Assembly (NCBI GenBank): GCA_964035575.1 | Contig: OZ037842.1 | Location: forward strand, 1,794,173 to 1,814,172 | DNA length: 20,000 bases | DNA from: Rhynchopus sp. YZ270_cl-10 | Lineage: Eukaryota | Reading direction: 5' to 3' | Shown: piece by piece, positions 1,789-20,000 of the stretch | Layout: every line of letters starts with the position of its first letter | How positions within the stretch are numbered: position 1 is the first letter of the stretch | Notes under the pieces: model-generated | What the model was told of the DNA's origin: nothing | Databases searched by the model: none | The model's input: the letters and a program-made list of their open reading frames with translations, nothing else | Program-made: the position numbers and the translations under genes

Positions 1789-1869
1789 GAAATTTTTTTA
1801 TCCCAAAAAAAAATTCAATGAAGACGAAACCGATAGACGTTTGATGTTGATAGTTTGTCGCAAGCTATC

Positions 1870-3777
1870 ATGATGCGTTTTTTTAGCAAGGACAAGGAGA
1901 CGAAAGACGCAGTGGATAATGCAAATGTCGTGGACCCTTATTACAGAGACGCAAAGGTTGTGGGGGAGTATATGTGTCTGCACAATGCGCGTGCTATCAT
2001 ACGACGGGACAAGTACGACAAAATCACCCGCATCAACAACTACTGTGTAAAGAAGCTGCTAGGCGAAGGACGCTACGGCGAAGTCTACCTCTGCAAGTCT
2101 ATGCGGGTGCACACCTTCTTTTGCTGCACATCTGAGACAAAGGACACAGACGACGAATTTGCCATCAAACTCGTCCGCAGATGCGACGTGAGGAAGGAAG
2201 AGTACAAGATCCTGAAGAGCGTGCAGCACGACCACATCGTGAGTCTTGTTGAGTACATTGACGACGCGACGCACCCTTGGGTCTTTCTTGTCTTCGAAAG
2301 CCTGGGGGGTGGACCCATTGCGGTGTGTTCTGACGACGGCTGCCTGATCCGCCCCGAGAAGCCATGGACAGAGGAGAAGGCAGAACCGCTCTTCGCTCAG
2401 ATGATCCTTGCACTGGAGTACCTGCACGGCAGAGGTGTCTTCCACCGCGACATCAAACCCGAGAACGTTGTCTTCACATCTCCAGAGGAAACGGACGTCA
2501 AGCTCATCGACTTCGGTGAGTCGCGAATGCTCAAAGCTAAGGTGAAAGGTCTTGCCGACGACTCCTCACGAGTGACGAAGGGCACACCGCTGTTCATGGC
2601 CTGTGAGATGTTGAGCGGCATGCGATTCTCTGACAGCCAAGCGGACGTGTGGGCCCTCGGTGTCCTGTTCTACCTGTTGTGTACAGGGTACGTCCCCTTT
2701 GGAAGGGGTAAGAAGACGACCTTTGAGCTGCACACCCAGATCCAGTTCGAAGTGCTAACGTTCCCAGACACAATGAGCCTTCACCTGCAGGAGATGCTCA
2801 CAAAGATGCTTGACAGAGATGTTGCAAAGCGAGCGTCCCTCCCGTACCTCAAACGTCACGAGTGGTTCTCAGGTGTCGCTTCAAAGGAAGGCGATTCTCT
2901 CGAAAAGTCTTCCGGCAGTTTCCGTGGGAACCCTCTCCGGAAGCGAAGCCCTGGTCTGAACACGCTTCCTTTGTTGGATGCAGATCTTGTGCGATCGAAG
3001 TCACCTTTCACCCTTGAGGAGTGCGTAAGCACACCAGTGCAGGGGGCAAAGGAAAAGGATTCGGAGTCGGCTCTCGGGTTTATTTTGGACGACTCAATCT
3101 TGGTCAAGAATATGCTTATTGTGGAAGACAGTGGGAAGATGCGTTCGCAGTTGCGATGGTTGCTCGAACATTCGAAACTGAGCAGGGTTAATCTGGAGCT
3201 CTCTGAAATGCAATACGTAGAAGACGCACTCGAAAAAATGCTCAATATGTCGAAGCAAGGTACACCCTTCGACCTCGTCATTATGGATATTTACCCTAGA
3301 AACAACGGAACGACTCAGACGGGGGTCGACGCCATCATCGCGCTAAGGGAGTTTGAGCACATGGAAAATCTTGACCCAACACCTGTGTGGTTCAGTTACT
3401 CCGAGTCGGAACCGTTTCCCTTTTTGGATGACACAATGACGAGGCTAAAAACGGGCATCATCGAGAAGCCGTTCACCACCCACCAGGCACGCTCTATATT
3501 GTGCCATCTTGGTGTGCGGTGCTGTGGCATCCAGGAAGAGGAGTTCCAGGAGATGGTCGAGCAAAGCAACCACTTCGCGGACGCGCAGTTCATTGCGTCG
3601 CAGTGTTCTCTGAGGAAAGGCTCTCTCCCGACAGGGTACCTTGACCGCACGAACATTATCAGTGTTCCAGATGATTACACAAGCAAAGATGATGAGTTCA
3701 GCGAGGACAAACTTGAAATATCCCTCGGTTCCGGCGGGTTCGTGCGAGAGACAAGCGAGAGGTCTTTGGGTCAATAG
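1870..3777 (+). CDS. CAMKK/GRIK-like Ser/Thr protein kinase with C-terminal response-regulator receiver (REC) domain
   Basis: Kinase motifs LGEGRYGEV, AIK, HRDIKPEN, DFG, GTPLFMACE, DVWALG (about 2041-2868). INNY..., LVEYIDD..., GGPI resemble CaMKK/GRIK kinases. REC motifs LIVED, FDLVIMDI, TPV, EKPF (about 3109-3510). First in-frame ATG is 1870; the ORF track start at 1855 is TTG. Confidence 0.88.
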   Translation: MMRFFSKDKETKDAVDNANVVDPYYRDAKVVGEYMCLHNARAIIRRDKYDKITRINNYCVKKLLGEGRYGEVYLCKSMRVHTFFCCTSETKDTDDEFAIKLVRRCDVRKEEYKILKSVQHDHIVSLVEYIDDATHPWVFLVFESLGGGPIAVCSDDGCLIRPEKPWTEEKAEPLFAQMILALEYLHGRGVFHRDIKPENVVFTSPEETDVKLIDFGESRMLKAKVKGLADDSSRVTKGTPLFMACEMLSGMRFSDSQADVWALGVLFYLLCTGYVPFGRGKKTTFELHTQIQFEVLTFPDTMSLHLQEMLTKMLDRDVAKRASLPYLKRHEWFSGVASKEGDSLEKSSGSFRGNPLRKRSPGLNTLPLLDADLVRSKSPFTLEECVSTPVQGAKEKDSESALGFILDDSILVKNMLIVEDSGKMRSQLRWLLEHSKLSRVNLELSEMQYVEDALEKMLNMSKQGTPFDLVIMDIYPRNNGTTQTGVDAIIALREFEHMENLDPTPVWFSYSESEPFPFLDDTMTRLKTGIIEKPFTTHQARSILCHLGVRCCGIQEEEFQEMVEQSNHFADAQFIASQCSLRKGSLPTGYLDRTNIISVPDDYTSKDDEFSEDKLEISLGSGGFVRETSERSLGQ

Positions 3778-5671: not shown

Positions 5672-7392
5672 ATGAGGTCTCTGTGTGTGATGCTATTGGG
5701 CGCCCTCTCACTCCGCAGAGGTGCCACTGCGCAGTGTGCCTCGCAGCAGCCGTGGTGCAGTGCCTTCACGCCCGCTCCAGCACCACAAGTCATGTCAACG
5801 TGCCCGGATCCTGGATCCGTCATTGGCCAGCCTATTGACCCACATTGCAAGAATCGGTTGCGCACCTGGCAGGTGGCACGTGTGCTTGAGCAGCACAACC
5901 TGTACAGGGAACAGCACGGTGCATGCCCGATGACGTACAGCACTGCCCTGGAAGACCATGTTATCGCGAGCTCAACCTTCCAGACCACTTGCGACATAGA
6001 CATCCCCTCGTTCTCCAAGATTAAATTATATGGTGAGAACATTGCCTCGGTGAGTGGTGTGCCTGGCGGAGACTTCTCGAGATGGGATGTGGCTGAGGGT
6101 GTGAAGGACTGGTACTGCATGCAGTAGGGCTGTTACAACTACGATAGCCAGCTTGGCAATTCCCCCATCTGGATCTTCGCACAGGTGGTATGGAAGGAGA
6201 CACTCGAGGTCGGGTGTGGTGTGTGCTCTTCCGCCTCTGGTCGCGTGCACCTCATGTGCTATTATCATGAGCGCAGCAGGTTACTGGTTGGTTCGCAGTT
6301 CACAAGTATCGGAGCACCTGGCACGACAGCGTCAGGGTGTGCGTCTGCAGTGACAACAGCTCCAACTTCTGTTCCCACAGCACAGCCTACTGCAGTGCCG
6401 ACACCTGTTCCGACAGCAATGCCAACAGCAGCGCCAACAGCACAGCCGACGTCAGCACCAACAAGCGCCCCTTCGTGCACAGAGAAGGACACGATGTCAA
6501 TGATGTGCTCACGGAGCCTGCCTGACACATGCCGCTTCAAGGTGCAGCACCATGAGAGGGTGCTCTCTGTTGCGTTCTCGAGCGACGGCACGCACTTTGC
6601 CACTGGCAGCGATGACGGAGTACGTGTGTTTGAGAGTGCAACAGGCACACAGACGCTGAAGCTTGCGTGTGCAGACTTTGCCGTGCACGACGTTGTGTTC
6701 TCGCCGGACGCACTGTCGGTTGCTGTTGCAGGTGGGTGGACGTGCTGTGGTGTGCAATGTGGCGACGGGAGCACTGCGGTACGTCCTGCACGACCTGGGG
6801 AGCAGAAGCACGCCGATGCGTAAGGTCGAGTACTCGCGTGTGGGTGGCCTGCTCGCGGGTGGGAACGCGCCAAGCACACGTGTTGTGCATGCAGACGACG
6901 GTGCCTTGGACCTTGTCATCCACACGCATGCGCGCAACGTCGCGTTTTCTCCTGACGGAAGTCTGCTGGCAACTGTGGTGGGGAGCGAGGTGGACGAGAT
7001 TGTGCAGATATGGGACGTTGTGACGGGGGGCGAAGGTGGGCACTGTTGCTTCTGAGGGTGCGCGCGTGGTGTCTGTGGCGTTCCTGTCTGGCCGTGAGCT
7101 GCTGCTGGGATGGATAGTGGTGCCGTCCTTGTGACTCGCTGGGCAAGCGGGACTGTCGGTGTGGGTGTCGCGACAGTGGCAGCAGCAGTGTCGATGCCCT
7201 CTCACGTGCTGCACCATGCCACGCCCTCTGCAGACGGGCAGCTCTTTGCTGCTGCAGGCCCTGCAGAGGTCGTCGTGTGGACGGCAACAGGCACTGTGCA
7301 CACCCGTCTCACCGGCCTCGACGCTGTTGTGGCTCAGGCATCCTTCTCCCCTGAAGGAGGCTTTCTTGCCACTGCCGGGCACGACGGGTCGC
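5672..7392 (+). pseudogene. Disrupted gene: signal peptide + CAP/SCP (PR-1-like) domain + Pro/Thr/Ala linker + WD40 repeats, truncated by the tandem array
   Basis: MRSLCVMLLGALSL signal-like start. CAP motifs HNLYREQHG, YGENIA, WY, QVVWKETLEVGCG, with an in-frame TAG at 6125-6127. PTAQPTAVPT repeats at about 6352-6475. WD40-like units (VLSVAFSSDGTHFATGSDD, VAFSPDGSLLAT..VQIWD, ASFSPEGGFLATAGHDGS). Frameshifts near 6735, 7025-7030 and 7107. Confidence 0.75.
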
Positions 7393-8367
7393 TCCTTGCA
7401 CAGCATCCTTGCACAGCATCCTTGCACAGCATCCTTGCACAGCATCCTTGCACAGCATCCTTGCACAGCATCCTTGCACAGCATCCTTGCACAGCATCCT
7501 TGCACAGCATCCTTGCACAGCATCCTTGCACAGCATCCTTGCACAGCATCCTTGCACAGCATCCTTGCACAGCATCCTTGCACAGCATCCTTGCACAGCA
7601 TCCTTGCACAGCATCCTTGCACAGCATCCTTGCACAGCATCCTTGCACAGCATCCTTGCACAGCATCCTTGCACAGCATCCTTGCACAGCATCCTTGCAC
7701 AGCATCCTTGCACAGCATCCTTGCACAGCATCCTTGCACAGCATCCTTGCACAGCATCCTTGCACAGCATCCTTGCACAGCATCCTTGCACAGCATCCTT
7801 GCACAGCATCCTTGCACAGCATCCTTGCACAGCATCCTTGCACAGCATCCTTGCACAGCATCCTTGCACAGCATCCTTGCACAGCATCCTTGCACAGCAT
7901 CCTTGCACAGCATCCTTGCACAGCATCCTTGCACAGCATCCTTGCACAGCATCCTTGCACAGCATCCTTGCACAGCATCCTTGCACAGCATCCTTGCACA
8001 GCATCCTTGCACAGCATCCTTGCACAGCATCCTTGCACAGCATCCTTGCACAGCATCCTTGCACAGCATCCTTGCACAGCATCCTTGCACAGCATCCTTG
8101 CACAGCATCCTTGCACAGCATCCTTGCACAGCATCCTTGCACAGCATCCTTGCACAGCATCCTTGCACAGCATCCTTGCACAGCATCCTTGCACAGCATC
8201 CTTGCACAGCATCCTTGCACAGCATCCTTGCACAGCATCCTTGCACAGCATCCTTGCACAGCATCCTTGCACAGCATCCTTGCACAGCATCCTTGCACAG
8301 CATCCTTGCACAGCATCCTTGCACAGCATCCTTGCACAGCATCCTTGCACAGCATCCTTGCACAGCA
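7393..8367 (+). repeat. Perfect tandem array (TCCTTGCACAGCA) x75
   Basis: 975 bp = 75 x 13. No variant unit seen on reading. Confidence 0.97.
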
Positions 8368-8435
8368 GGGGACCATTTTTTACAGGGGACCATTTTTTAC
8401 AGGGGACCATTTTTTACAGGGGACCATTTTTTACA
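8368..8435 (+). repeat. Tandem repeat (GGGGACCATTTTTTACA) x4, the reiterated 5' end of the retroelement
   Basis: Four exact 17-bp units starting at 8368, 8385, 8402 and 8419. Confidence 0.95.
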
Positions 8436-8570
8436 CATTACAACACACTTGTCCTTTCTTTTTACCCTCCCTCCCTCCCCCTTTCCTTTGTTTTATTGTG
8501 AGCCTTGTACGCCTCCACGGGGCGGTCCCTGGGCAACGGTAGAGGAGTGCAGGCCGGCGAAGCGCAAGGC
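8419..8570 (+). ncRNA. HDV-like self-cleaving ribozyme at the retroelement 5' end
   Basis: P1 GGGGACC (8419-8425, or any upstream unit) / GGTCCCT (8524-8530) with G1.U wobble. P2 GCCTTGTAC (8502-8510) / GCGCAAGGC (8562-8570). P3 GCC (8511-13) / GGC (8521-23). L3 TCCACGG. P1.1 CC (8515-16) / GG (8531-32). GCAA, then P4 CGGT/GCCG. J4/2 GCGAA with putative catalytic C8558. Confidence 0.85.
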
Positions 8571-8624
8571 GTAGTGTGTCTTGTCCTTCTTTGTTTTCGT
8601 TTTTTGGTTTTTGCTTTTTTAAAA

Positions 8625-9124
8625 ATGAGGAGGAAGGCCCTTTTGGGGGCGTTGTGGGTGGTGCTGCATGTCTGCATCAGCAGCAGCAGCAGGAGCTACA
8701 CCAGCAGCAACAACAAGAGCAGCAACAGCAGCAACAGCAGCAACAGCAGCAACAGCAGCAACAGCAGCAACAGCAGCAACAGCAGCAACAGCAGCAACAG
8801 CAGCAACAGCAGCATATACTACACCAGCTGCAACTGCAGCAGCAGCAACAACGGCAGCAACAGCAGCAACAGCAGCAACAGCAGCAACAGCAGCATATAC
8901 TACACCAGCTGCAACTGCAGCAGCAGCAACAACGGCAGCAACAGCAGCAACAGCAGCAACAGCAGCAACAGCAGCATATGCTACACCAGCTGCAACTGCA
9001 GCAGCAGCAACAGCAGCAACAAAAGCAGCAACAGCAGCAGCAGCAGCAACAGCAGCAACAACATATGCTACACCAGCTGCAACTGCAGCAGCAGCAACAG
9101 CAGCAACAAGAGCAGCAGCAACAA

Positions 9125-9165
<41 letters not shown>

Positions 9166-12100
9166 ACAGGAGCAACAACATAAGCTGCATCAACAGCAGT
9201 AGCAGGAGCACCAACAGCAGGAGCGGCAGCTACAACAGCTTCCTCATCAGTGGCAGGAGCCCCCTTCCCCCCCTTTTTTACCCCAAAAAGAGGCCTCTTG
9301 AGCCCAACAACCCAAGCAGCTGCAGCTTTGATAGCAGCAACAAAAACGTGTGTGGAGGCAACAAAGCAAAGAACTGTTGTCATAACAACCCACACCCCCC
9401 TTCCCCCCATGATATCCCCAAAAAGAGGCAATGTATGCCCAACCACATCAGTGGCTGCAACTGTGATAGCAGCAAAAACGAAATCTTCGGAGTCCTGGGT
9501 GGGGTCCCAGTATCACCCCTGGTGTGCAGCAGCAGCAGTTCCAAAGGCCTTTACAGCAGCAGTTCCAACAGCAGGCTCTACAGCTTTTTCACCAGCAGTT
9601 CCAAAGGCTTCTGCAGCAGCGGTTCCAACAGCAGGTCCAACAGCAGTTCCAACAGCAGGCACAACAGCAGTTTAAACAGCAGTTCCAACGGCTTCTGCAG
9701 CAGCAGTTCCACGAGCGTTTCCAAAAGCAGTTCCAGCAGCAGTTCCAGCAGCAGTTCCAACAGCAGGCACAACAGCAGTTTCAACTGCAGTTCCAAAGAC
9801 TTCTGCAGCAGCAGCTCCAACGGCAGGTCCATCAGCAGTTCCAACAGCAGGCTCAACAACAGCAGTTTCAACAGCAAGGACTTCTGCGGCAGCAGCTCTA
9901 ACGGCAGGTCCAACAGCAGTTCCAACAGTAGGCTTAACAGCAGTTTCAACAGCAGTTCCACAGACTTCTGCAGCAGCGGTTCCAACAGCAGGTCCAACAG
10001 CAGGTCCAGCAGCAGTTCCAACAGCAGGCACAACAGCAGTTTCAACTGTAGTTCCAAAGACTTCTGCAGCAGCAGCTCCAACGGCAGGTCCATCAGCAGT
10101 TCCAACAGCAGGCTCAACAACAGCAGTTTCAACAGCAGTTCCAATGGCTTCTGCAGCAGCAGTTCCAACAGCGTTTCCAAAAGCAGTTCCAGCAACAGGC
10201 ACAACAGCAGGCACAACAGCAGTTTCATCAGCAAGGACTTCTGCGGCAGCAGCTCTAACGGCAGGTCCAACAGCAGTTCCAACAGTAGGCTTAACAGCAG
10301 TTTCAACAGCAGTTCCACAGACTTCTGCAGCAGCGGTTCCAACAGCGTCTCCAAAAGCAGTTCCAGCAGCAGTTCCAACAGCAGGCACAACAGCAGTTTC
10401 AACTGCAGTTCCAAAGACTTCTGCAGCAGCAGTTCCAACAGCAGGTCCAACAGCAGCACCAACATCAACAGCAGACGCAGCAACAACATCAGCGACAACA
10501 ACCTAGGGGGTGGTGAGCGAGGTATGCTGGTGTTCGGGGTCAGCCTTGCGGGGCGAGAAGGACAGAGTGGCTGTGTGATGATGCGGGTGTGGCAAAAGGG
10601 GTGTGTACAGATAGAGTTTTGGTTCGACTGGTGGTGCAACCTCTGGGAGGTCTTCACCTCCTTGCGTCAGCCTGACCCCTGCTGGGTAGCCGAGGCACCT
10701 GAGTGGGGAGTGTTTGTGTCGTTCGCGGTCCTGGATCTGTGGAAGGACAGACGCGCCCCTACCCTCAGTCATCTCATTTTGTGGCTGGTGGGCAGGAGGA
10801 CCAGGAGGACGCGACGAGGACACCGGTCCTTGAACTGGACCAAGTCACAGGCGGGCAGGCTCCGTCGGCGCAAGGCGCCCTGCAATCGTCCGCCCTCCCC
10901 GGCAGCGCACCCAGTTTTCCGCAGGATCAGGGTCGCCGATGCGTTGAGAGGTGCTTTGCAGTGTGTGGCCATCTGGGTTCTGGTTTTTGTGGGGTCTGAG
11001 CTTGGGAGGTCAGCGCCACATGCTTTGGGTTGTGCGCTGTTTCGGGACGCGGAGGTGCTGGGGGTGGGTCTGCTGCGGGGACTGTTCCGCGCACGCAGGG
11101 GGTGGCGGTGGCTGGAAGGGGCGAGCGAGCGAGTGCACCGATGGACCGGAGGGATCCGAGTGGCTGCCAGCTTGGTGAGAGCCAGTGTGATGGGGGTGGG
11201 TCAGTTGTCGGTGCGTGCAGCCGAGTGGGTGTGGGTTGCATGGTCCGCAGGTGGTTGTTTGGCGGGTTTTGTGGCACTGGTCGGCGTCGCGCGCCCACTT
11301 GGCTGGGTTCTTCTCTTGGAGGTGCGCCGTGTGGCAGCACGCAGGTGGACTCGTAGGATCGGGATGGCATTTGGCATGCTGGCGGTGTCCCTACTGGTCT
11401 TGCTGTCGTTGTTGTGGCGAGCGGTGACGCCCTGGGACCTGCGCCCTGCCCCTGCTGATCCGGAGCACCCGGTAAGCTTGTCCCCGTTTGCGTTGACCGG
11501 TGGGTGCGCAAACGTGAACGCTCCTGCGTATACAGAGCAGGCGGTGTCTGTGGACGCGACTCTGGCGAAGTTTGGAGCTAAACGCATCCCCAACGTGTCT
11601 ACTAATGATTGTGGTTATGTGGCACTACACCTCTGGGACCACGACACGCAGCCGGACGTGAGGGCAATGCGCAAGCAGCTGTATGACACAGCAGTGGAGG
11701 TGTCGAACCGCCTGGTGCAGGTGCTGGGGTCGCAGGAGGCCATGACGGAGTTTGCCAATGGTGTGACCGGCGAGGCCCACCTCAACCACTTGGGGCTTCA
11801 GCTCACCGCGACAGCATCCCGCATCAACATCGTGGTGGTGCAGGCATCGGAAGAGAACCCCCTCGTGCGCATCACCCCTGGTAGCAAAAGAGTCGCCAAG
11901 TCGTACGCGGAGAGCTTCCAAGCGAAACTTCCCACGGTCGTCATCGCTCTCTGTGACTCTCACTTTGAGGCAGTGGAGCTTGTCCCGGAGGTGGGGAAGA
12001 CCAAGGAGGGGATGGCAGAGAAGATGAGGAAGGAGGCTCGGCAGGCAGTGCTGGACACAGCGCATTTGGATGGCATCATCCCCACCAACACCACCACCAC

Positions 12101-13509
12101 CGCCCCCCTGGCTACCAAGCTGGGACACATCAATGCGGATCGGGTGTTCTGCCCCTTTGATGGATGCAGAGCGGGAATTTTGTCTTCGAGTGATGCGGTC
12201 GGGGGCCTGTCTCGTAAGGGCTTGCTGCAGCACATGCGTCGCCACCAGGCCGATGGGGCGTACATCCCCGACGAGCTGTTGGGCCACTTGGGCATGTCGC
12301 GCTGTGCGAACGATCAGTGCGACATGCTATTGCCGCAGAGCAAGGAGGTCTGCAACACCTGTACGGTGCACTTTGGCGAAGAAGGCTTCACCGCTCCGTC
12401 TCCCTCCAGTCGAGGAATGCTGACAGATCAGGATGACCTCCCCTCCTTTGAAGTCATGGGGACCACCAGGATCCAGCTGAAGGGCGGGTGCCCAGACAAA
12501 CACCTACAGCTGTACAGCGAGCTCTTCCTGAGGGTCCTCATGGACATCCTGGAGTACCAGGACGAGGTGGCCTGGAAGCGCCTTGCACTGTTCTTCACAG
12601 TGTTGCACCGGACACGGACAGAACGAGGGGGCAAGGACCAGGAGCGACGTTTGACGAGCACCTGGGGGAAGGACTTGGAGGCTTGGAAGGCTGGCCAGTA
12701 TGTCGCCCTGTGGGAGCAAACGGTAGAGGAGCGGAAGCCAAGGCCCTCTGGGTGGCCGGATGAAGACACTGACGAAGGGAGACGGAAGCGCACCATCGCC
12801 AAAGCGAGAGCAGGACTCCCGAGCCAGGCCATGTCTTGCGCTACCAGCGACGGCCTCGCCCCACAGACACCGGCGACGCTGGAAAAGCTTCAGACGAAGC
12901 ACCCAGCCGCTGCCGACTCCAAGGCCCTGGAGCAGGCGGATTGGCCCCAGCCTCAGGAGGTCCCACCGGTGACAGTGGTGGAGGTGATGAAGGCCCTGCG
13001 GAGCATGCCGAAGTCATCGGCGGCGGGTCCCTCGAACGTGACGGGCGCGCACCTTCGTACACTTTGCCTACAGAGGCGGGCTAAGGGCACTTTGGCAGCG
13101 CTGGCCGCAGTGTTGACGTCTTTGGCACGAGGAAATGCTCCAGTGGAGGTGGCTGAGTTCTTCGCCGGCGCTAACTTGGTGGCTCTCCGGAAGCCTGCAA
13201 AGGGGCCGGGCCTGGAGGAGGACGTGCGACCGATTGCGGTTGGGGACACTCTCCGCAGACTGGTGGGAAAGATTCTGTCGGCGCGAGTGCGGGTGCCTGC
13301 TAGGACGCTTCTTCTTCGAGGGAACCAGGTGGGGGTGGCAACGGCAAGGGGGGCGGCAGTGGCGACGGATGTTATCTCGCAGTACGCCGTGCGCAACCGC
13401 GGAAAAGGTAAAGTCATTTTGAAAATTGACTACCGTAACGCGTTCAACTGCGTAGACCGCCTGTCGATGCTAAGAGCGGTCGACGCGAACCTCCCCGAGC
13501 TGGCCCCAT
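8625..13509 (+). CDS. Retrotransposon polyprotein, N-terminal part: signal-like peptide, Ser/Asn-rich region, hydrophobic segments, OTU-like domain, zinc fingers, RT subdomains 0-3
   Basis: ATG 8625 (MRRKALLGALWVVLHVCI). OTU-like NDCGYVAL (Cys 11610) ... SHFEAV (His 11961). C2H2 CPFDGC...LLQHMRRH (12150-12245). RT motifs SAAGPS, RPIAVGDTLRRLVGK, LKIDYRNAFNCVDR. The frame is broken by the 52-bp duplication. Confidence 0.82.
8677..10500 (+). repeat. Low-complexity AGC/AAC trinucleotide region with higher-order repeats, inside the element ORF
   Basis: (AGCAGCAAC)n runs, four copies of ...CTACACCAGCTGCAACTGCAGC at ~81-87-bp spacing (8814-9090), and repeated CAGCAGTTCCAA units (9530-10450). Confidence 0.9.
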
Positions 13510-13561
13510 CGCCTGTCGATGCTAAGAGCGGTCGACGCGAACCTCCCCGAGCTGGCCCCAT
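13458..13561 (+). repeat. Exact 52-bp tandem duplication that frameshifts the RT
   Basis: CGCCTGTCGATGCTAAGAGCGGTCGACGCGAACCTCCCCGAGCTGGCCCCAT at 13458-13509 and 13510-13561. Confidence 0.97.
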
Positions 13562-16500
13562 GGGTGCGATGGTGTTACCTGGAGCCCTCCAGCCTGTTTT
13601 ATGGTGGAGATACCATAAGGTCACAGCGCGGAGCTCAACAAGGAGATCCCTTGGGCCCGCTTCTCTTCTCCCTGACCATCCACCAGATGGCGCTAGAGCT
13701 GAAGGGGCACCCAGGCCTGGATGGGACTTTGTGGTACCTCGATGACGGCTCTCTGCGGGGGTCCCCTAAGGCGGTTTTTGAGGCGTACCAGGTTCTGCGC
13801 ACTCGTAGCTCCGAACTGGGGTTGGAGGTGAACGCGAACAAGTGTGAGCTCATCTCCACTGGTGGCGTCTCCACGGAGGAGCTCAAGGCGGTGGGGTTCA
13901 CGTTGACCGAGGGTGGACAGGACGCCATGGGTGAAGGCGGGTTCCGGCTGTTGGATGTGGATGGGTTCGATTTCTTGGGCATCCCCATTGGGTCTGCGGC
14001 ATTCTGCGAGGAGTACATGGCCCGGAAGGTGGACGATTCCCGCCGCAACCTGGAAGCCCTTGTGGACCTCGGGGACTCCCAGGCAGCCTTCTACGTACTG
14101 AGATACTGCGAAGGCTACTGCCGCATGGTGTTCTACATGCGGGGGATCCCACAGTGCGCGGAGTACCTGACGGCCTTTGACGACCTGATCGACAGGTGCC
14201 TGGCTGCGCTTCTGCATGACCCGGATGGGGCGCTGCCGGAGTTGGCAAGGGCGCAGGCGGCGCTTCCTGTGGCGCTTGGGGGGCTGGGTATCCGTCGCAC
14301 AGTGGACCATCGGACGGCTGCGTCCCTCGCCTCTCAGTCAGGGAACCTGCAACTGTCGCAGGCCTTGGACCCTGCCTTCACCTGGGATGAGGAGAGATGG
14401 AACAGCGCAGCTGAGGAGTACAACTCCAGGGTACCGGTGGCGTTTCACGTGGACAGGGCCCAGCCGAAGAAGATCCTGGAGCAGCAGAGTCTGTCATCTG
14501 CGGTGATTGACGCCCAGGCAGACAAGTTGATGCAACAGCTCTGCATGCGAGACCGAGCACGGATGAAGTCCCTTCTCCTGCCGCTTTCTGGGACGTACCT
14601 CACGGCGACACCATCAGCAAGGAACCAGATGTCTTCAGCGGATTTTGCGGTTGTGACCCGTTTCCGACTAGGGGTGGCCATCCATGCGGAGGGAACGACT
14701 TGCTCGGCATGTCAGGGGGGGCAGAAAAGGGTTGTCATGGACTCCTTTGGCGACCACACCTTTGGCTGCCCCTACTCCAAACACCGCGTCGCCCGCCACA
14801 ACGCCTTGCGGGATTCGGTGTACAGAGCGGCTCAAGGGGCGGGCTTGGACCCTGCTTTGGAGGAGACCGTGCGAGTGGAGTTGGAGTCTAAGAAGCGGCC
14901 AGGCGATGTCTACCTCCCAGTAGGAGTGGCGGAAAATGGACCTCGTTGTTTGGACATCACCCACGTGTGCCCCACCTTGCCTTCCTACAGAACAGGGGCC
15001 TCGAAGTTTGTGGGCTGGTCGGCGAAGAACCAGGGCCAGGTCAAACGGGAGAAGCACGAGCGGGATTTGAACAAGATCAACACCAAGTTCTCCCCTATTG
15101 TGTTTGAAGCCTTCGGGGGTGCAGGCGACGAGGCGAACCTCTTGATTGCGCAGCTTGGAGGCCTGACGACGGGACAGACGTCGCACCTAACAGGGTCGGC
15201 AGAGTTGCGCATCCGGGAGAGCATTGCGGTGGCGTACCAGAAAAAGGTCGCATCTTCCTTTCTGGAGCGGGGTGCTATGTGTGTAGGGATTGCCACCCTG
15301 AAGCGGGAGCCGTGTGTGGAGGTAGATGTGGCACCGTCTGCAGAGGACATGGACCGGTTTGGACGCCGCAGTGCAGGGGCTGTGGAACCTCTCTGTGATG
15401 ATGCGAACCCTGACGACGATATGAGTCGTCCTGCTCCAGACCGGTCGGAGGAGCAGCAGGGGAAGCGCAAGAGGGACGTGAAGCCGGACCACGTGGAGCC
15501 ACCGAGGAAGCGGACCGGGAGGTTTGATTCGGCTACCGTGATTCCGGAAGGGCCGGGTCTCGATGTGGTGCGTGAGTGGGAGTTTTTGCGTGAGTGCCCG
15601 GCAGCGCAGAGGCCTCGGGCGACGGAACAGGCGGCCAAGCTGGGAGCCTCGAAGGTGACTTGGTCGTTTGTGGCGGGGGACTGTGCTTTTGAGGCTTTGC
15701 TCTTCGCCACCGGGCGCACGGATTTGTCGGTGGAGGGTCTGCGCCAGGCGGCAGTGAAGAAGGTCCAGGGCCGCGCTGATCTGTCGAGTGCGGCTGTCCC
15801 TAATTTTGGGGTCTGGCAGCGGCTGATGACGAGTGGGGACAGAGGAGACCAGCGAACGTGGGCGGATGCCATTGCAGTGGCGGGGGCAGGGGAGGCTCTT
15901 GAGGTATCTGTGGTCATCCTCAACGAGTTCGCCCGCCCTTCTCTGATGGTGCCAAGAAAACGGCCTAAGGCAGTGGTCCTTCTCCTCCACTCGGGTGACC
16001 AGGATGCGGCAGATGGATCCGGCAGTATCCCGGGACACTACGAGCCCCTCACCATGGACCCGGCTCTGCAGCAGCACATCCTGTCTTTTGAGGCCACAGG
16101 TGGTAAGGGGGAGTGCCAGTCAGAGCGCCCCATGGCTTTTGTGGGAGCGAGGGAGGCGGAGGCGTCGAACACTTTCCTGCAGTGCGAACAATGCAGCAAG
16201 CTCTTCGATGCGTCGGACGCACACTTCTGCTGTCACACGTGTGGTGGCTTGGCATGTCTGCACTGCGCTCAGGGGTCCAAGCACTGCCCTCTGTCGCAAA
16301 TTGGCAGGGCGGAATACTTCAGTGCCCTGTCTTTTTTGCACTCGAATGTTCCGGCTCAGGCTGCCTCTGCGGAGGGGAGCGGAGACCCACCACCTAAACG
16401 GGCTCCTTCTCCAGCAGTGCCAGCTCCCGAGGGCGAGGACGTCGAGGAGGTAGACACGCCAATGGCGGGCGAAGAGGGGCAGCAGGCAGAACAGAAGCAG

Positions 16501-18291
16501 CAGAAGCACGAGAAGCAACGGAAACAGCAGAAGCAGCAACAACAAAAGGCGGACCAGGATAAGAAGGAAGCGTTGCAGCGTGCGTCGGACGCGTGGCAGC
16601 AAGCCCTGGAGGTACGGCGGGAGCATCGTCGGTCGTGGGGACCGGATTTGGCCGCGCTTCGGGGCACTTTTGGCGACCGCCAGCAGGAGTTGAGTCGTTT
16701 CCTGGAGGAACAGAATGTGCGTCTGGACCAGGCGAAGGCGGCGGACAGGCATCGTGTGGAGGAGCTGACCGCCAGGCACAAGCGGGAACTCGCAGAGGAC
16801 GCGAAGAGGATGCATGCGCAGTACTTGGAAGACTGCGATCGGCACCCCGAAGCAGGAGAGTCGCTCCGGGCGGAGTATGACAGGCAACGCTGCGAGAGGC
16901 ATTACGCCATCGCAGCTAAGCATGAGTCGGAGCAGAAGGCGACCACTCTGTTGTTGACGGCGGTGAACCTCTCCCGACAGCTGGAGGCGGAACGCATGGT
17001 GGCATACGGGCGGTGCTTTGGGGTGGTGTGCGAAGGGCGGCTATTCCTCCCCTGCCATGCGGTGCGGAGAGCGGTGGGCGACGACCCTGAAGGACTCGAA
17101 CCTGACTGTGTCGGCGACTGGATGGCTCTCTTTGGTCCTCAAGGTGCTTCTCCGTGCCCGGGCGAGTTCCTGTACTGCTGGGCGACACAGCAGCCGTGGA
17201 GTGGGAACGGGGAGGGGGACGGTGATTGCCCGGAGTCGGTGGTCGCCCGTCAGGCGGTTAGGAAGATAGCAGGGGAGGCCGGATACTGCGACACCTGGGG
17301 CAAGACCAGCGCGGTCATCGTCGTTCGGGAAGGCAGGGTCAGCTGGGGAACCCCTTCTCGGGATCAGCTGGAGGAGGAGGTGGGGCGACAGGCCGAGGCG
17401 GCAGACACCGAGGTGCGTGTGAAGGTGGAGGAGATGGATGATGATGAGCAGGAGCAGGAGGAGGACCTCGACACCGCGATGGAGGGGGCGGATCGCTCGC
17501 ATCCTCTGTCAGTGGAAGGCATCCCTGACCAGAAGAAGCAAGCGAGGGTGAGGGAATTGCTGAGGGCGCAGAGCGAGGCTTGGATGTGGACGGAGGAGGA
17601 GCGGACGGAGAGGGGGGGTCTTTTCCCGTGCCTCACCATGGGGTCGCCGGTGCCTTCTTCTGTGACGAAGTGGATCTCCCTGTTCCACTACCGTCAGGGA
17701 GAGAAACAGGATGGCAGACCCTTGTTGTCACTCCCCCTCTCTACCGCTACTTTCACTCAGTGGTATGAGGTGATGAAGGTGGTGGGTTTGCATGAGTGGT
17801 CGGTTCAGGAAAAGTGCAAGGCAAAGTCGACGTTGCATGCCCTGACGGACAACCGGAGCAGTAGGGGGCAGGCCTTTGCAGCGGAGAGTACAAGGAGGGA
17901 GAATGAGGCACGAGCGGCTCGAGAGGGAATAGGCCGACAACCTCAAGCCTCCTCTTCTTCTTCTTCTTCCTCCACCTCTGCAGGCCGTGGCACTACAACC
18001 TCCATCGCCCAACCTGCAGTCTCCACTTCTTCCTCCTCCTCATCGGCAGGCCGTGGCAATGCAACCTCCTCCGCCCAACCTGCTCCTTCCCCAGCTCCCA
18101 AAGGACCCCAGCGCCATGCAGCTCAGGGTAGGTCCAACACGTCGAACGTGTTCACCGACGCAGTGGCACAAGCGACGCAGCATGTGCTCTCGCCCCAGGA
18201 GGTGCAGAGAGGGCGCAATGGTCGCGGTGGTGGACAGAAGGGGAGACAGAGCGGAGGAAGGAAGGGGAAAAAGGGGAATAAAAAGAATTAG
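13510..18291 (+). CDS. Retrotransposon polyprotein, C-terminal part: RT core, CCHC + REL endonuclease, second OTU-like domain, Cys-rich finger, coiled coil, basic tail
   Basis: GAQQGDPLGPLLF, WYLDDG (13732-13749), FLGIPIG, GGLG. CSAC...GDHTFGC, RHNALRD, RPGD, LDITH, KREKH. OTU-like GDCAFEAL (Cys 15682) ... TWAD ... GHYEPL (His 16036). CEQC..CHTC..CLHC. Stop TAG at 18289-18291. Confidence 0.9.
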   Translation, partial: RLSMLRAVDANLPELAPWVRWCYLEPSSLFYGGDTIRSQRGAQQGDPLGPLLFSLTIHQMALELKGHPGLDGTLWYLDDGSLRGSPKAVFEAYQVLRTRSSELGLEVNANKCELISTGGVSTEELKAVGFTLTEGGQDAMGEGGFRLLDVDGFDFLGIPIGSAAFCEEYMARKVDDSRRNLEALVDLGDSQAAFYVLRYCEGYCRMVFYMRGIPQCAEYLTAFDDLIDRCLAALLHDPDGALPELARAQAALPVALGGLGIRRTVDHRTAASLASQSGNLQLSQALDPAFTWDEERWNSAAEEYNSRVPVAFHVDRAQPKKILEQQSLSSAVIDAQADKLMQQLCMRDRARMKSLLLPLSGTYLTATPSARNQMSSADFAVVTRFRLGVAIHAEGTTCSACQGGQKRVVMDSFGDHTFGCPYSKHRVARHNALRDSVYRAAQGAGLDPALEETVRVELESKKRPGDVYLPVGVAENGPRCLDITHVCPTLPSYRTGASKFVGWSAKNQGQVKREKHERDLNKINTKFSPIVFEAFGGAGDEANLLIAQLGGLTTGQTSHLTGSAELRIRESIAVAYQKKVASSFLERGAMCVGIATLKREPCVEVDVAPSAEDMDRFGRRSAGAVEPLCDDANPDDDMSRPAPDRSEEQQGKRKRDVKPDHVEPPRKRTGRFDSATVIPEGPGLDVVREWEFLRECPAAQRPRATEQAAKLGASKVTWSFVAGDCAFEALLFATGRTDLSVEGLRQAAVKKVQGRADLSSAAVPNFGVWQRLMTSGDRGDQRTWADAIAVAGAGEALEVSVVILNEFARPSLMVPRKRPKAVVLLLHSGDQDAADGSGSIPGHYEPLTMDPALQQHILSFEATGGKGECQSERPMAFVGAREAEASNTFLQCEQCSKLFDASDAHFCCHTCGGLACLHCAQGSKHCPLSQIGRAEYFSALSFLHSNVPAQAASAEGSGDPPPKRAPSPAVPAPEGEDVEEVDTPMAGEEGQQAEQKQQKHEKQRKQQKQQQQKADQDKKEALQRASDAWQQALEVRREHRRSWGPDLAALRGTFGDRQQELSRFLEEQNVRLDQAKAADRHRVEELTARHKRELAEDAKRMHAQYLEDCDRHPEAGESLRAEYDRQRCERHYAIAAKHESEQKATTLLLTAVNLSRQLEAERMVAYGRCFGVVCEGRLFLPCHAVRRAVGDDPEGLEPDCVGDWMALFGPQGASPCPGEFLYCWATQQPWSGNGEGDGDCPESVVARQAVRKIAGEAGYCDTWGKTSAVIVVREGRVSWGTPSRDQLEEEVGRQAEAADTEVRVKVEEMDDDEQEQEEDLDTAMEGADRSHPLSVEGIPDQKKQARVRELLRAQSEAWMWTEEERTERGGLFPCLTMGSPVPSSVTKWISLFHYRQGEKQDGRPLLSLPLSTATFTQWYEVMKVVGLHEWSVQEKCKAKSTLHALTDNRSSRGQAFAAESTRRENEARAAREGIGRQPQASSSSSSSSTSAGRGTTTSIAQPAVSTSSSSSSAGRGNATSSAQPAPSPAPKGPQRHAAQGRSNTSNVFTDAVAQATQHVLSPQEVQRGRNGRGGGQKGRQSGGRKGKKGNKKN

Positions 18292-19277
18292 AGAGCTAGA
18301 GAGTTAGAGGGTGAGAGTGTGTGTGTAGAAGCGTGTAGAGAATGACAGTTTGCCCCATGTTTATTTTTAACCCTTTTTATTTTGTGTTTTTTGTTCTTTT
18401 CATCCTTTGGGGTTTGCCCCCCCTTTCCCCCCTTTCCGCCCCCCTTCCTATTTGTTAATATTTTTGGTTGGCTGCTGGCTAGGACGGGTCTACCCCAGCG
18501 ACGGCCCGTACCCCTTGGACGAGGCTCTGAGGGTAGAGGGCAGTCTCGGAGTAAGACCTGTCTAAGAGCCAGGCCAGTGGCATCAGGAGCCATTGGGCCA
18601 CTTTTATAGATTGTGCAGTAGAGTAGAGTTTGTACAGAACTCTTGTCCTTTGAGTTCCTTTTTTCACTCCTTTAGTTTTTCATTTTTACCTTGTGAAGGT
18701 CAATTTCAATTTTTCATTTTTCAAAACCACCACAGGTAAGCACGAGACCCACCATTGTTGTTGTTGATTTTGTTGTGCGTTATTGTTGTTTTCCCCTTTG
18801 GGTGTCAGTCAGTCGGGTCAGGTCACACTTACTGAAGTTCTCAAAAATTTTCACCAAAAAGAAAACTACTAAAAAGATTATGGAACTTCCTTTTTATTTG
18901 TTTGTGTGTTACAGAGGAAACGGCTCACTCAATCCCCTCCTTCTCCTCCCCTCCCCTCCCCAAGACAAAGCAAAATAAAACTACACCGGTAGACAGAGCA
19001 ACCCTCCCGTCCCATCCCCTCCCCTTTTCCTTTTGGGAAAAATTGCACTCACATACGACCCTTTTGCTTATTTGCAGGGAAGTGTTGGTTGTAGTTGTCC
19101 CACATGCTTTCTATTTTAGTGCCACTAACTGTGTTTTCAGGCACTGTCTTGCCAGTACAATAGTAAAGTGCCCTTGTCTGGACATCTAGCTGTTTACATA
19201 CTCGCTTGACTAGTAAGTACCCCCTCTGTCACTGGATGTAGATAAAAAAAGCGAGCCTAGGGCTAAGTTGAACAACA

Positions 19278-19278
<1 letters not shown>

Positions 19279-19320
<42 letters not shown>
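19279..19320 (+). repeat. Poly(A) tail of the retroelement (42 A)
   Basis: Pure A run about 990 nt after the ORF stop. Confidence 0.85.
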
Positions 19321-19322
<2 letters not shown>

Positions 19323-19662
19323 TTTTAGTAGTTTTCTTTTTGGTGAAAATTTTTGAGAACTTCTGTAAGTGTGACCTGACCCGACTGACTGACACCCAAA
19401 GGGGAAAACAACAATAACGCACAACAAAATCAACAACAACAATGGTGGGTCTCGTGCTTACCTGTGGTGGTTTTGAAAAATGAAAAATTGAAATTGACCT
19501 TCACAAGGTAAAAATGAAAAACTAAAGGAGTGAAAAAGAAACTCAAAGGACAAGAGTTCTGTACAAACTCTACTCTACTGCACAATCTATAAAAGTGGCC
19601 CAATGGCTCCTGATGCCACTGGCCTGGCTCTTAGACAGGTCTTACTCCAAGACTGCCCTCTA

Positions 19663-19665
<3 letters not shown>
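19321..19665 (-). repeat. Inverted copy of element 3' UTR segment 18531-18876
   Basis: The reverse complement matches GGGTAGAGGG...ACTACTAAAAAG with only about 3 substitutions and 1 indel seen. Confidence 0.95.
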
Positions 19666-19700
<35 letters not shown>

Positions 19701-20000
19701 GGAAGCTGTGGAAGCTGTGGAAGCTGTGGAAGCTGTGGAAGCTGTGGAAGCTGTGGAAGCTGTGGAAGCTGTGGAAGCTGTGGAAGCTGTGGAAGCTGTG
19801 GAAGCTGTGGAAGCTGTGGAAGCTGTGGAAGCTGTGGAAGCTGTGGAAGCTGTGGAAGCTGTGGAAGCTGTGGAAGCTGTGGAAGCTGTGGAAGCTGTGG
19901 AAGCTGTGGAAGCTGTGGAAGCTGTGGAAGCTGTGGAAGCTGTGGAAGCTGTGGAAGCTGTGGAAGCTGTGGAAGCTGTGGAAGCTGTGGAAGCTGTGGA
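19666..20000 (-). repeat. Poly(T) x31 (19666-19696) followed by tandem array (TGTGGAAGC)n from 19698 to the window end
   Basis: More than 33 perfect 9-bp units. On the minus strand it reads (CACAGCTTC)n-CACAT-poly(A). Confidence 0.96.

Follow-up and report, generated by a model that had tools for sequence, protein, structure and literature searches.

A CRE-like retrotransposon of the class without long terminal repeats (non-LTR) in Rhynchopus sp. YZ270_cl-10 may encode a polyprotein from which an adjacent OTU-fold protease removes a membrane-binding leader at an LTGG motif, a reading from the sequence to which we give a probability of about 0.5. The element lies in a 20,000-nucleotide stretch of contig OZ037842.1 (positions 1,794,173 to 1,814,172; hereafter the window). 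Its leader is read in one open frame with the reverse transcriptase (RT), includes a hydrophobic block under coding constraint and is followed by a domain whose structure model has the OTU fold, with an xxGG motif at a fixed spacing ahead of the catalytic cysteine. R2 and other endonuclease-type non-LTR elements are regarded as compact enzymes that bind nucleic acids, and they are being developed for gene insertion; if our reading is true, polyprotein processing and membrane staging would be part of this class, with a bearing on how such proteins mature and where the ribonucleoprotein (RNP) forms. An earlier note on this DNA had drawn attention to the region 8625–11430, which is part of the 5′ third of the element, as the start of a possible membrane glycoprotein, overlooking the xxGG site and the OTU-fold domain between leader and RT, where cleavage would uncouple the two.

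By its motifs the element is a CRE-like non-LTR retrotransposon (window positions are used throughout, and the element's features and the array at its 5′ junction are on the + strand). The RT (12402–13905; RPIAVG at 13227, QQGDPLGP at 13636, YLDD at 13735) is of the non-LTR type with a YLDD core, matches Pfam RVT_1 (E 2e-8) and has PDB matches to L1 ORF2 and R2. It is preceded by a C2H2-type zinc finger (12150–12245) and followed by a CCHC knuckle and restriction-like endonuclease (RHN..E..RPGD; 14701–14960), placed by comparison with the consensus in the accessible text of PMC12857005; in P0001, a 2570-residue database protein, this motif runs from residue 1376 onward, with 14 residues from the second Cys to the His compared with 7–8 in that consensus. 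Just one open reading frame (ORF), a finger before the RT, the CCHC and endonuclease motifs after it and a poly(A) tail together make up the CRE-clade layout, as given in the accessible parts of PMC12278014 and PMC12857005 (single ORF, zinc finger, RT, CCHC, restriction-like endonuclease, poly(A)). Copies were compared through database proteins and Logan contigs. We call the window element's own family, for which P0001 stands with 187 members, family 1, and that of P0002, with 30 members and an RT core 61% identical to that of family 1 (95/157), family 2. Family 1 is young and abundant (high-copy): its full-length proteins are about 99% identical to one another, and the stretch is present wholly or partly in 14 of the 24 runs listed, with at least half its words in nine.

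ATG 8625 opens MRRKALLGALWVVLHVCISSSS, and the frame stays free of stops over 8625–13457, the other two forward frames having stops in most segments; the extension is thus in frame with the RT, as the earlier note had stated. Chance openness of 10501–11430 is ruled out, since none of 300 dinucleotide shuffles was stop-free (mean 7.0 stops); stop-free shuffles of the three repeat or spacer segments numbered 3, 15 and 13 of 300. The length of 3204 residues given earlier for the repaired ORF is likewise recovered, as 1611 and 1593 codons on either side of a perfect 52-bp tandem duplication (13458–13561), which causes a frameshift confined to this copy. The duplication is missing from a 3930-nt contig (run X3, contig 20) and from P0001, which reads through, ruling out a family-wide frameshift; it is peculiar to this copy or to its assembly.

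The predicted OTU-fold cysteine protease domain (OTU1; 11535–11990, with Cys at 11610 and His at 11961) was identified using AlphaFold2 and Foldseek. The model has a predicted local distance difference test score (pLDDT) of 75 and a predicted TM-score of 0.75, and 13 structures match it at E ≤ 0.001, all OTU domains among the matches listed, with OTUD3 at the top (E 1e-4, target TM-score 0.78). The fold search alone detected the domain, which a sequence-profile search of the PDB missed. Its predicted catalytic pair, NDCG...HFE, is found in register, at a spacing of 110–118, in the window, P0002, P0081 and P0083, and a relative of the protease region occurs as a Rhynchopus humris transcript, in keeping with a diplonemid host. 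OTU and papain-like proteases cut after Gly-Gly, and the predicted self-cleavage site, LTGG (11493–11504), stands 36 residues before the OTU cysteine. The corresponding distance is 37 for LYGG or LCGG in family 2 (P0002 and P0066), 33 for MQGG in P0081 and 32 for MRGG in P0082, so that the spacing is shared by each of the four lineages whose sequence covers this region (that of P0083 begins too late to judge), lineages that are only about 35% identical around the motif. No xxGG was found at a 32–37-residue distance from the four C-terminal OTU-like motifs checked. Among other CRE-like matches, the leaders of some (for example P0026, P0033, P0036, P0039 and P0040) have 2A-like NPGP motifs, up to four, upstream of the RT, and the CRE-like ORF of P0011 has a ubiquitin-like segment ending in LRGG, also upstream of the RT; splitting the leader from the RT therefore recurs.

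Between the repeats and LTGG lies a conserved, Trp/Arg-rich hydrophobic block (10503–11492, beginning with LGGG at 10503 and Met at 10524) that comprises an Arg-rich part (10794–10874), two weak hydrophobic segments (10932–10988 and 11235–11291) and a strong helix (11358–11417). Of the 40 variant rows listed, out of 136 in all, ten fall in the block; seven of the ten are silent compared with 26% expected (p = 0.004), and the sole indel listed for it keeps the frame. All nine full-length family-1 proteins among the matches listed have an intact block, and it is under coding constraint. All three hydrophobic segments named in the earlier note are present and are the only 19-mers of the ORF with a Kyte–Doolittle value of at least 1.6 (1.71, 1.86 and 2.49); three such peaks arose in 2 of 500 shuffles, and the other two frames have none. 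In the relatives P0002 and P0003, peaks of 1.64–1.98 also occur downstream of the RT, and only the third segment is therefore clearly membrane-like. This last helix stands out in both hydropathy (2.49) and model confidence (pLDDT reaching 87, where the block averages 47.8). It has a net charge of +5 before it and 0 after it, the Arg-rich flank being N-terminal; if the topology were plain type I, the RT would by the positive-inside rule be luminal, and the flank would better fit a hairpin or surface anchor than a type I protein with a cytosolic RT. The helix of family 2 has no Arg flank, so flank charge does not decide the topology.

Family 2 keeps the Trp/Arg part of the block (104/130 identical) and the last helix with xTGG (36/42); it is without two of the three hydrophobic segments, leaving an odd number in both families. 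The more distant P0081 (38% identity) has, in the window's order, a hydrophobic part, an Arg-rich part, a second hydrophobic part, MQGG, OTU, finger and RT. In a quick RT tree (43 of 47 rows, with no named CRE, SLACS, R2, NeSL or HERO reference) the OTU-bearing elements group together, and P0081 groups with families 1 and 2 at a Shimodaira–Hasegawa-like approximate likelihood-ratio (SH-aLRT) value of 99. The block has no Pfam match, the ESM Atlas gave no usable match for it or for the P0081 leader, and DNA scans of JGI metagenomes, IMG/VR and GTDB gave none for the leader or close relatives; a plasmid search with a host gene came back empty and carries no weight. Long leaders are uncommon among CRE-like frames: 41 of 80 CRE-like metagenome loci have the anchor motif, and leaders of at least 100 residues were counted in two of the 28 closed frames and in four of the 13 open ones, three of them with a hydrophobic peak. 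A separate CRE-like group (L006 (1–600), L023, L028 and P0008) carries hydrophobic leaders that are homologous among themselves and continue in frame into the RT; these leaders are of another type, those of L006 and P0008 being 31% identical over 190 residues.

Several observations weigh against a constrained membrane leader cut off by OTU1. Six of the ten block variants fall within 17 nt and may be one event, and of the other four, three are silent (p = 0.056); variable columns number 3.7 per 100 residues in the block compared with 1.3 in the RT. Identity between families 1 and 2 is higher in the leader (80–86%) than in the RT core (61%), which suggests a recent swap, and family 2 is therefore not independent support. 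The P0081 leader aligns to the block loosely, at 29%, P0082 has a Trp/Arg stretch with no hydrophobic peak, and the structure model of the block is of low confidence, with helices only (mean pLDDT 47.8). Cellular OTUs cut after the GG of folded ubiquitin and not after a bare linear motif. Finally, the signal-like start described below is rarer than chance would give and resembles that of a host CAP-domain protein (2.59 against 2.44 by the same score), and our reading leaves it unexplained.

The front of the leader consists largely of repeats. Tract 1 (8681–9239) is a CAG/CAA-type microsatellite whose ORF-frame reading is Ser/Asn (AGC 98, AAC 47 and AGT 1 codons). Tract 2 (9533–10502) has a 12-bp unit and a 357-bp higher-order repeat; the ORF frame again gives Ser/Asn, and the +1 frame Pro-Thr-Ala-Val. 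Between them is a unique Pro/Lys/Cys-rich spacer (9240–9530, with an in-frame Met at 9435), for which a weak search found no relative among 32 candidates. Residues 19–626 hold 62 N-x-S/T sequons and 32 Cys, and the dozens of sequons and spaced cysteines of the earlier note are thus there to be counted. Shuffled residues, however, average 49.8 ± 4.7 sequons (at least 62 in 12 of 2,000 shuffles), so most of the 62 follow from composition. Changes within the tracts were counted between internal duplicates by a diagonal scan, such events not being independent. Of the 47 changes in tract 1, the ORF frame makes none silent and the polyGln (+2) frame 25; for tract 2 the ORF frame has 15 silent changes of 76 where 17% are expected, and constraint in the +1 Pro-Thr frame was rejected (18/76 silent, 32% expected). 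With no silent excess in the ORF frame, the Ser/Asn tract shows no amino-acid constraint, yet it would be glycosylated if in the endoplasmic reticulum (ER). Family 2 has a shorter in-frame tract of like make-up, with 15 sequons in 133 residues, and the unrelated CRE-like leaders L023 and L028 carry Gln or Thr/Ala/Asn tracts. Overlapping tract 1 are a 219-codon polyGln frame (8543–9202) without an upstream ATG and an Ala/Thr frame (8668–9183) from ATG 8668; the C-to-T change that makes a stop in the Gln frame is nearly absent from tract 1, hinting at capture from a polyGln gene. Rfam microRNA and isrG matches on the repeats were dismissed as low-complexity noise.

Four copies of a 17-bp unit (8366–8435) span the 5′ end of the element, which likely starts at the last GGGGACC (8419); P0063 ends by reading through into identical 5′ sequence from another flank. 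From this position an HDV (hepatitis delta virus)-like ribozyme is predicted (8419–8569), a feature overlooked by the earlier note, from a sub-threshold Rfam match (HDV-F-prausnitzii, 24.6 bits against a gathering score of 44, E 0.01) and from pairings read from the letters. A nested double pseudoknot of P1, P1.1, P2, P3 and P4 is readable, with a 7-bp P1 (8419–8425/8524–8530) whose first pair, at the cut site, is G·U, a long J1/2, P2 (8503–8510/8562–8569), P3 (8511–8513/8521–8523) and a GGCGAA junction with the catalytic C (8558) in J4/2. A P1 partner arises by chance in 1 of 5,000 shuffles; a plain minimum-free-energy fold is no better than shuffles (z 0.47), by a method that cannot model pseudoknots. 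In four runs the only differences listed over 8490–8720 are at 8541 and 8546, in the P4 loop, and the family is too young for this confinement to carry much weight. The ribozyme-core pattern also occurs in 43 IMG/VR stretches (L081–L123), some with two or three copies; among 17 distinct matches, 15 have a GGC(G/T)AA-type J4/2 and four a strict P1, and none of the stretches matches the element by blastn.

No ATG occurs in 8419–8625 ahead of ATG 8625, the first after the 5′ end, which begins a signal-like sequence (MRRK-ALLGALWVVL; 8625–8690), and 8620–8680 has no variant or indel row in four runs. A pyrimidine tract followed by AG (8471–8502; 26 of 30 pyrimidines, AG at 8501–8502) is a candidate spliced-leader acceptor, and a second candidate AG (8628–8629), behind a U-rich tract with 20 of 30 pyrimidines, is just past the start ATG. 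Signal-likeness was scored by a crude in-house rule. The ORF start scores 2.59, a value reached by 5 of 351 window ATGs, by 16 of 3,661 ATGs of the 80 metagenome loci and, of 614 starts with the composition of the hydrophobic block, by 12; such a start is uncommon by chance, and to this extent the signal-like beginning recorded in the earlier note is confirmed. The host CAP-domain protein scores 2.44. Family 2, P0081 and P0082 do not pass it at the starts called for them, but gene callers often miss the true start, which may be farther upstream. In a single run-X2 contig, 11351 is joined to the start-codon sequence (8620); this contig is a rearranged copy or a chimera.

We propose the following course of events. 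The HDV-like ribozyme would make the 5′ end of the RNA, and translation would begin with ATG 8625, perhaps once a spliced leader has been joined on at 8502, to make the 3204-codon frame as one virus-like polyprotein. The Ser/Asn tract would be a tolerated, repeat-derived disordered spacer, its sequons largely a by-product. The leader would bind the membrane from the cytosolic side through the one conserved helix, keeping the translating RNA–protein complex at the membrane until OTU1 cuts at LTGG and the zinc finger–RT–endonuclease part is freed.

The alternatives to this scheme partly overlap. A working signal peptide could instead place the Ser/Asn tract in the lumen, N-glycosylated, with one or three helices bringing the OTU–RT part back into the cytosol, where it would stay tethered unless cleavage frees it. 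We consider this unlikely, although the low background of the signal score (5/351, 16/3,661 and 12/614 starts), the position of ATG 8625 as first after the 5′ end with no variant row, the 62 sequons against 49.8 in shuffles, the in-frame tract of family 2 with its 15 sequons in 133 residues and the odd number of hydrophobic segments in both families all favour it; the tract has no silent excess and in its first part varies like a polyGln frame (25/47 silent in +2, events not independent), the called starts of family 2 and P0081 are not signal-like (true starts may be upstream), the net charge is +5 before and 0 after the best helix, and a long Arg-rich stretch would need to lie in the lumen. 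A fuller version, in which ribozyme-cut RNA yields a signal-led polyprotein in the ER, with a heavily glycosylated luminal repeat domain, RNP assembly at the membrane and an OTU cut at LxGG that frees the RT, strikes us as quite unlikely; if true, the element would be the first of the non-LTR class to have a replicase that is anchored in a membrane and processes itself. The glycoprotein or envelope ectodomain suggested in the earlier note is not supported, the tract being a degenerate microsatellite without silent excess. That the leader is an envelope-like protein packaging the RNP for cell-to-cell spread is very improbable, for all that a signal-like start, sequons and a membrane helix share one frame with the RT: there are about 600 residues of degenerate microsatellite and no folded ectodomain, the block has no Pfam match, a Pfam scan showed no capsid-like domain in the ORF, and known retrotransposon envelopes have highly structured ectodomains in the accessible text of PMC13524379.

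Residues 1–633 might also go untranslated, as 5′ untranslated region (UTR)-like variable repeats of the kind found in MoTeR and FoTeR, with the start at Met 10524 and the signal-like sequence due to chance; trans-splicing at AG 8628–8629, which would remove the first ATG, is one example of a route. None of the 30 family-1 proteins listed begins upstream of Met 10524, though these are gene-caller starts, 20 of the 30 nucleotides before that AG are pyrimidines, and few codons of the Ser/Asn frame are one step from a stop, so that the frame stays open easily; clusters of variable-number tandem repeats also lie upstream of CRE-clade ORFs in the available text of PMC12857005. We nevertheless find this doubtful, as the ORF frame is the sole forward frame free of stops over 8625–10502, each of the 35 offsets between internal duplicates is divisible by three (which triplet-based repeats favour), family 2 is open in frame and called from upstream of the tract in 5 of 15 members listed, and a ribosome scanning towards 10524 would come upon seven other ATGs first. 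A further possibility, again one we hold to be rather improbable, concerns the protease: with no self-cleavage, the OTUs would be deubiquitinases that shield the element protein from degradation or blunt a host response, and the RT would stay joined to the leader. The best fold matches are indeed deubiquitinases, and the post-endonuclease OTU-like motifs of each family have no xxGG at a matching distance; the xxGG spacing of OTU1 is nevertheless kept among lineages about 35% identical around it, and self-cleavage and deubiquitination can coexist.

Beyond the endonuclease, about 960 residues (15400–18288) include a second OTU-like motif pair (GDCAFEAL ... GHYEPL, 15676–16050, Cys–His spacing 118, by motif only), a Cys-rich finger that is weakly FYVE-like (16183–16272; E 0.05–0.07, under the curated cut-off) and a Gln/Lys-rich coiled stretch. 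In family 2 this part holds two OTU-like repeats, one with Ser replacing Cys. The 3′ UTR and a 42-nt poly(A) tail (19279–19320) take up 18292–19320. After the tail comes an inverted copy (19321–19696) of the 3′ UTR stretch 18530–18878; it ends in 31 T and so lies between A42 and T31.

The 5′ flank is a WD40-like frame with no Rfam match to a spliced-leader RNA and no recognised target-site duplication. The host gene there (5672–7390) has a signal-like start, a CAP domain, a PT repeat that resembles tract 2 in its +1 frame, and WD40 repeats, and is broken by stops and the insertion; 75 perfect copies of a 13-bp unit (7393–8367) lie in the broken WD40 frame at the 5′ junction, on the target side. 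Perfect tandem arrays occur at both junctions (7393–8435 and 19698–20000) and inside the RT (13458–13561), with sizes of 13 bp × 75, 17 bp × 4, 52 bp × 2 and 9 bp × at least 33; the units of the two flanking arrays share CACAGC on opposite strands, and in P0068 and P0089, too, a short repeat stands at the point where the element is interrupted. The arrays could be due to reiterative copying by the RT or to an assembly effect. A host Ser/Thr kinase (1837–3777) has a weak C-terminal match to a response-regulator receiver.

Among known systems the element is closest in layout to the CRE clade (CRE1/CRE2, SLACS and CZAR; MoTeR, FoTeR and Cnl1), with which, in the accessible literature, it shares a single ORF, fingers, RT, endonuclease, poly(A) and internal or 5′ repeats; the available text of PMC10161547 mentions, with no further description, that Diplonema has SLACS-like RTs. 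In the accessible part of PMC12857005, SignalP predicted a signal peptide, without a transmembrane segment, for the FoTeR proteins of two strains. Signal peptides and 5′ repeats being already reported in this clade, a signal prediction alone is not new. What differs here is size (3204 codons, compared with about 1170 in FoTeR), a 960-residue leader with a membrane-like helix, the OTU-fold domains and the roughly 960 residues after the endonuclease. Unlike trypanosomatid CRE, the element was not seen in a spliced-leader array (a WD40 frame here, and another flank in P0063), and fungal members are likewise without a spliced-leader target.

The envelopes of errantiviruses and other LTR elements have a signal peptide, an ectodomain and a transmembrane segment, a layout that the leader recalls in outline; in the accessible text of PMC13524379 their ectodomains are highly structured fusogens, in contrast to the microsatellite tract in a non-LTR ORF. 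Our literature search, which left subscription journals and Repbase Reports mostly uncovered, found no paper linking OTU or transmembrane terms with these elements, and none of the papers that it returned, those on envelopes included, appeared to describe this layout. NeSL and Utopia elements have a ubiquitin-like-modifier-type (Ulp1-like) protease before the zinc finger and RT (PMC4640811, the accessible text of which has no occurrence of ‘OTU’). Here, by contrast, the fold is OTU and not Ulp1, and is preceded by a hydrophobic, repeat-bearing leader with xxGG. The 2A-bearing non-LTR elements such as L1Tc, in the accessible text of PMC4981915, likewise split a leader from the enzymatic part within one ORF, and L1Tc also has a 5′ HDV-like ribozyme (accessible text of PMC4035085). 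The window family has no NPGP, and the separation would instead be proteolytic. In arterivirus nsp2, coronavirus nsp3 and tymovirus PRO, a papain- or OTU-type protease, LxGG-type self-cleavage, a low-complexity region and a membrane anchor are combined in one polyprotein. No sequence relationship to these positive-strand RNA virus replicases was found; the likeness is one of working, here in a retroelement.

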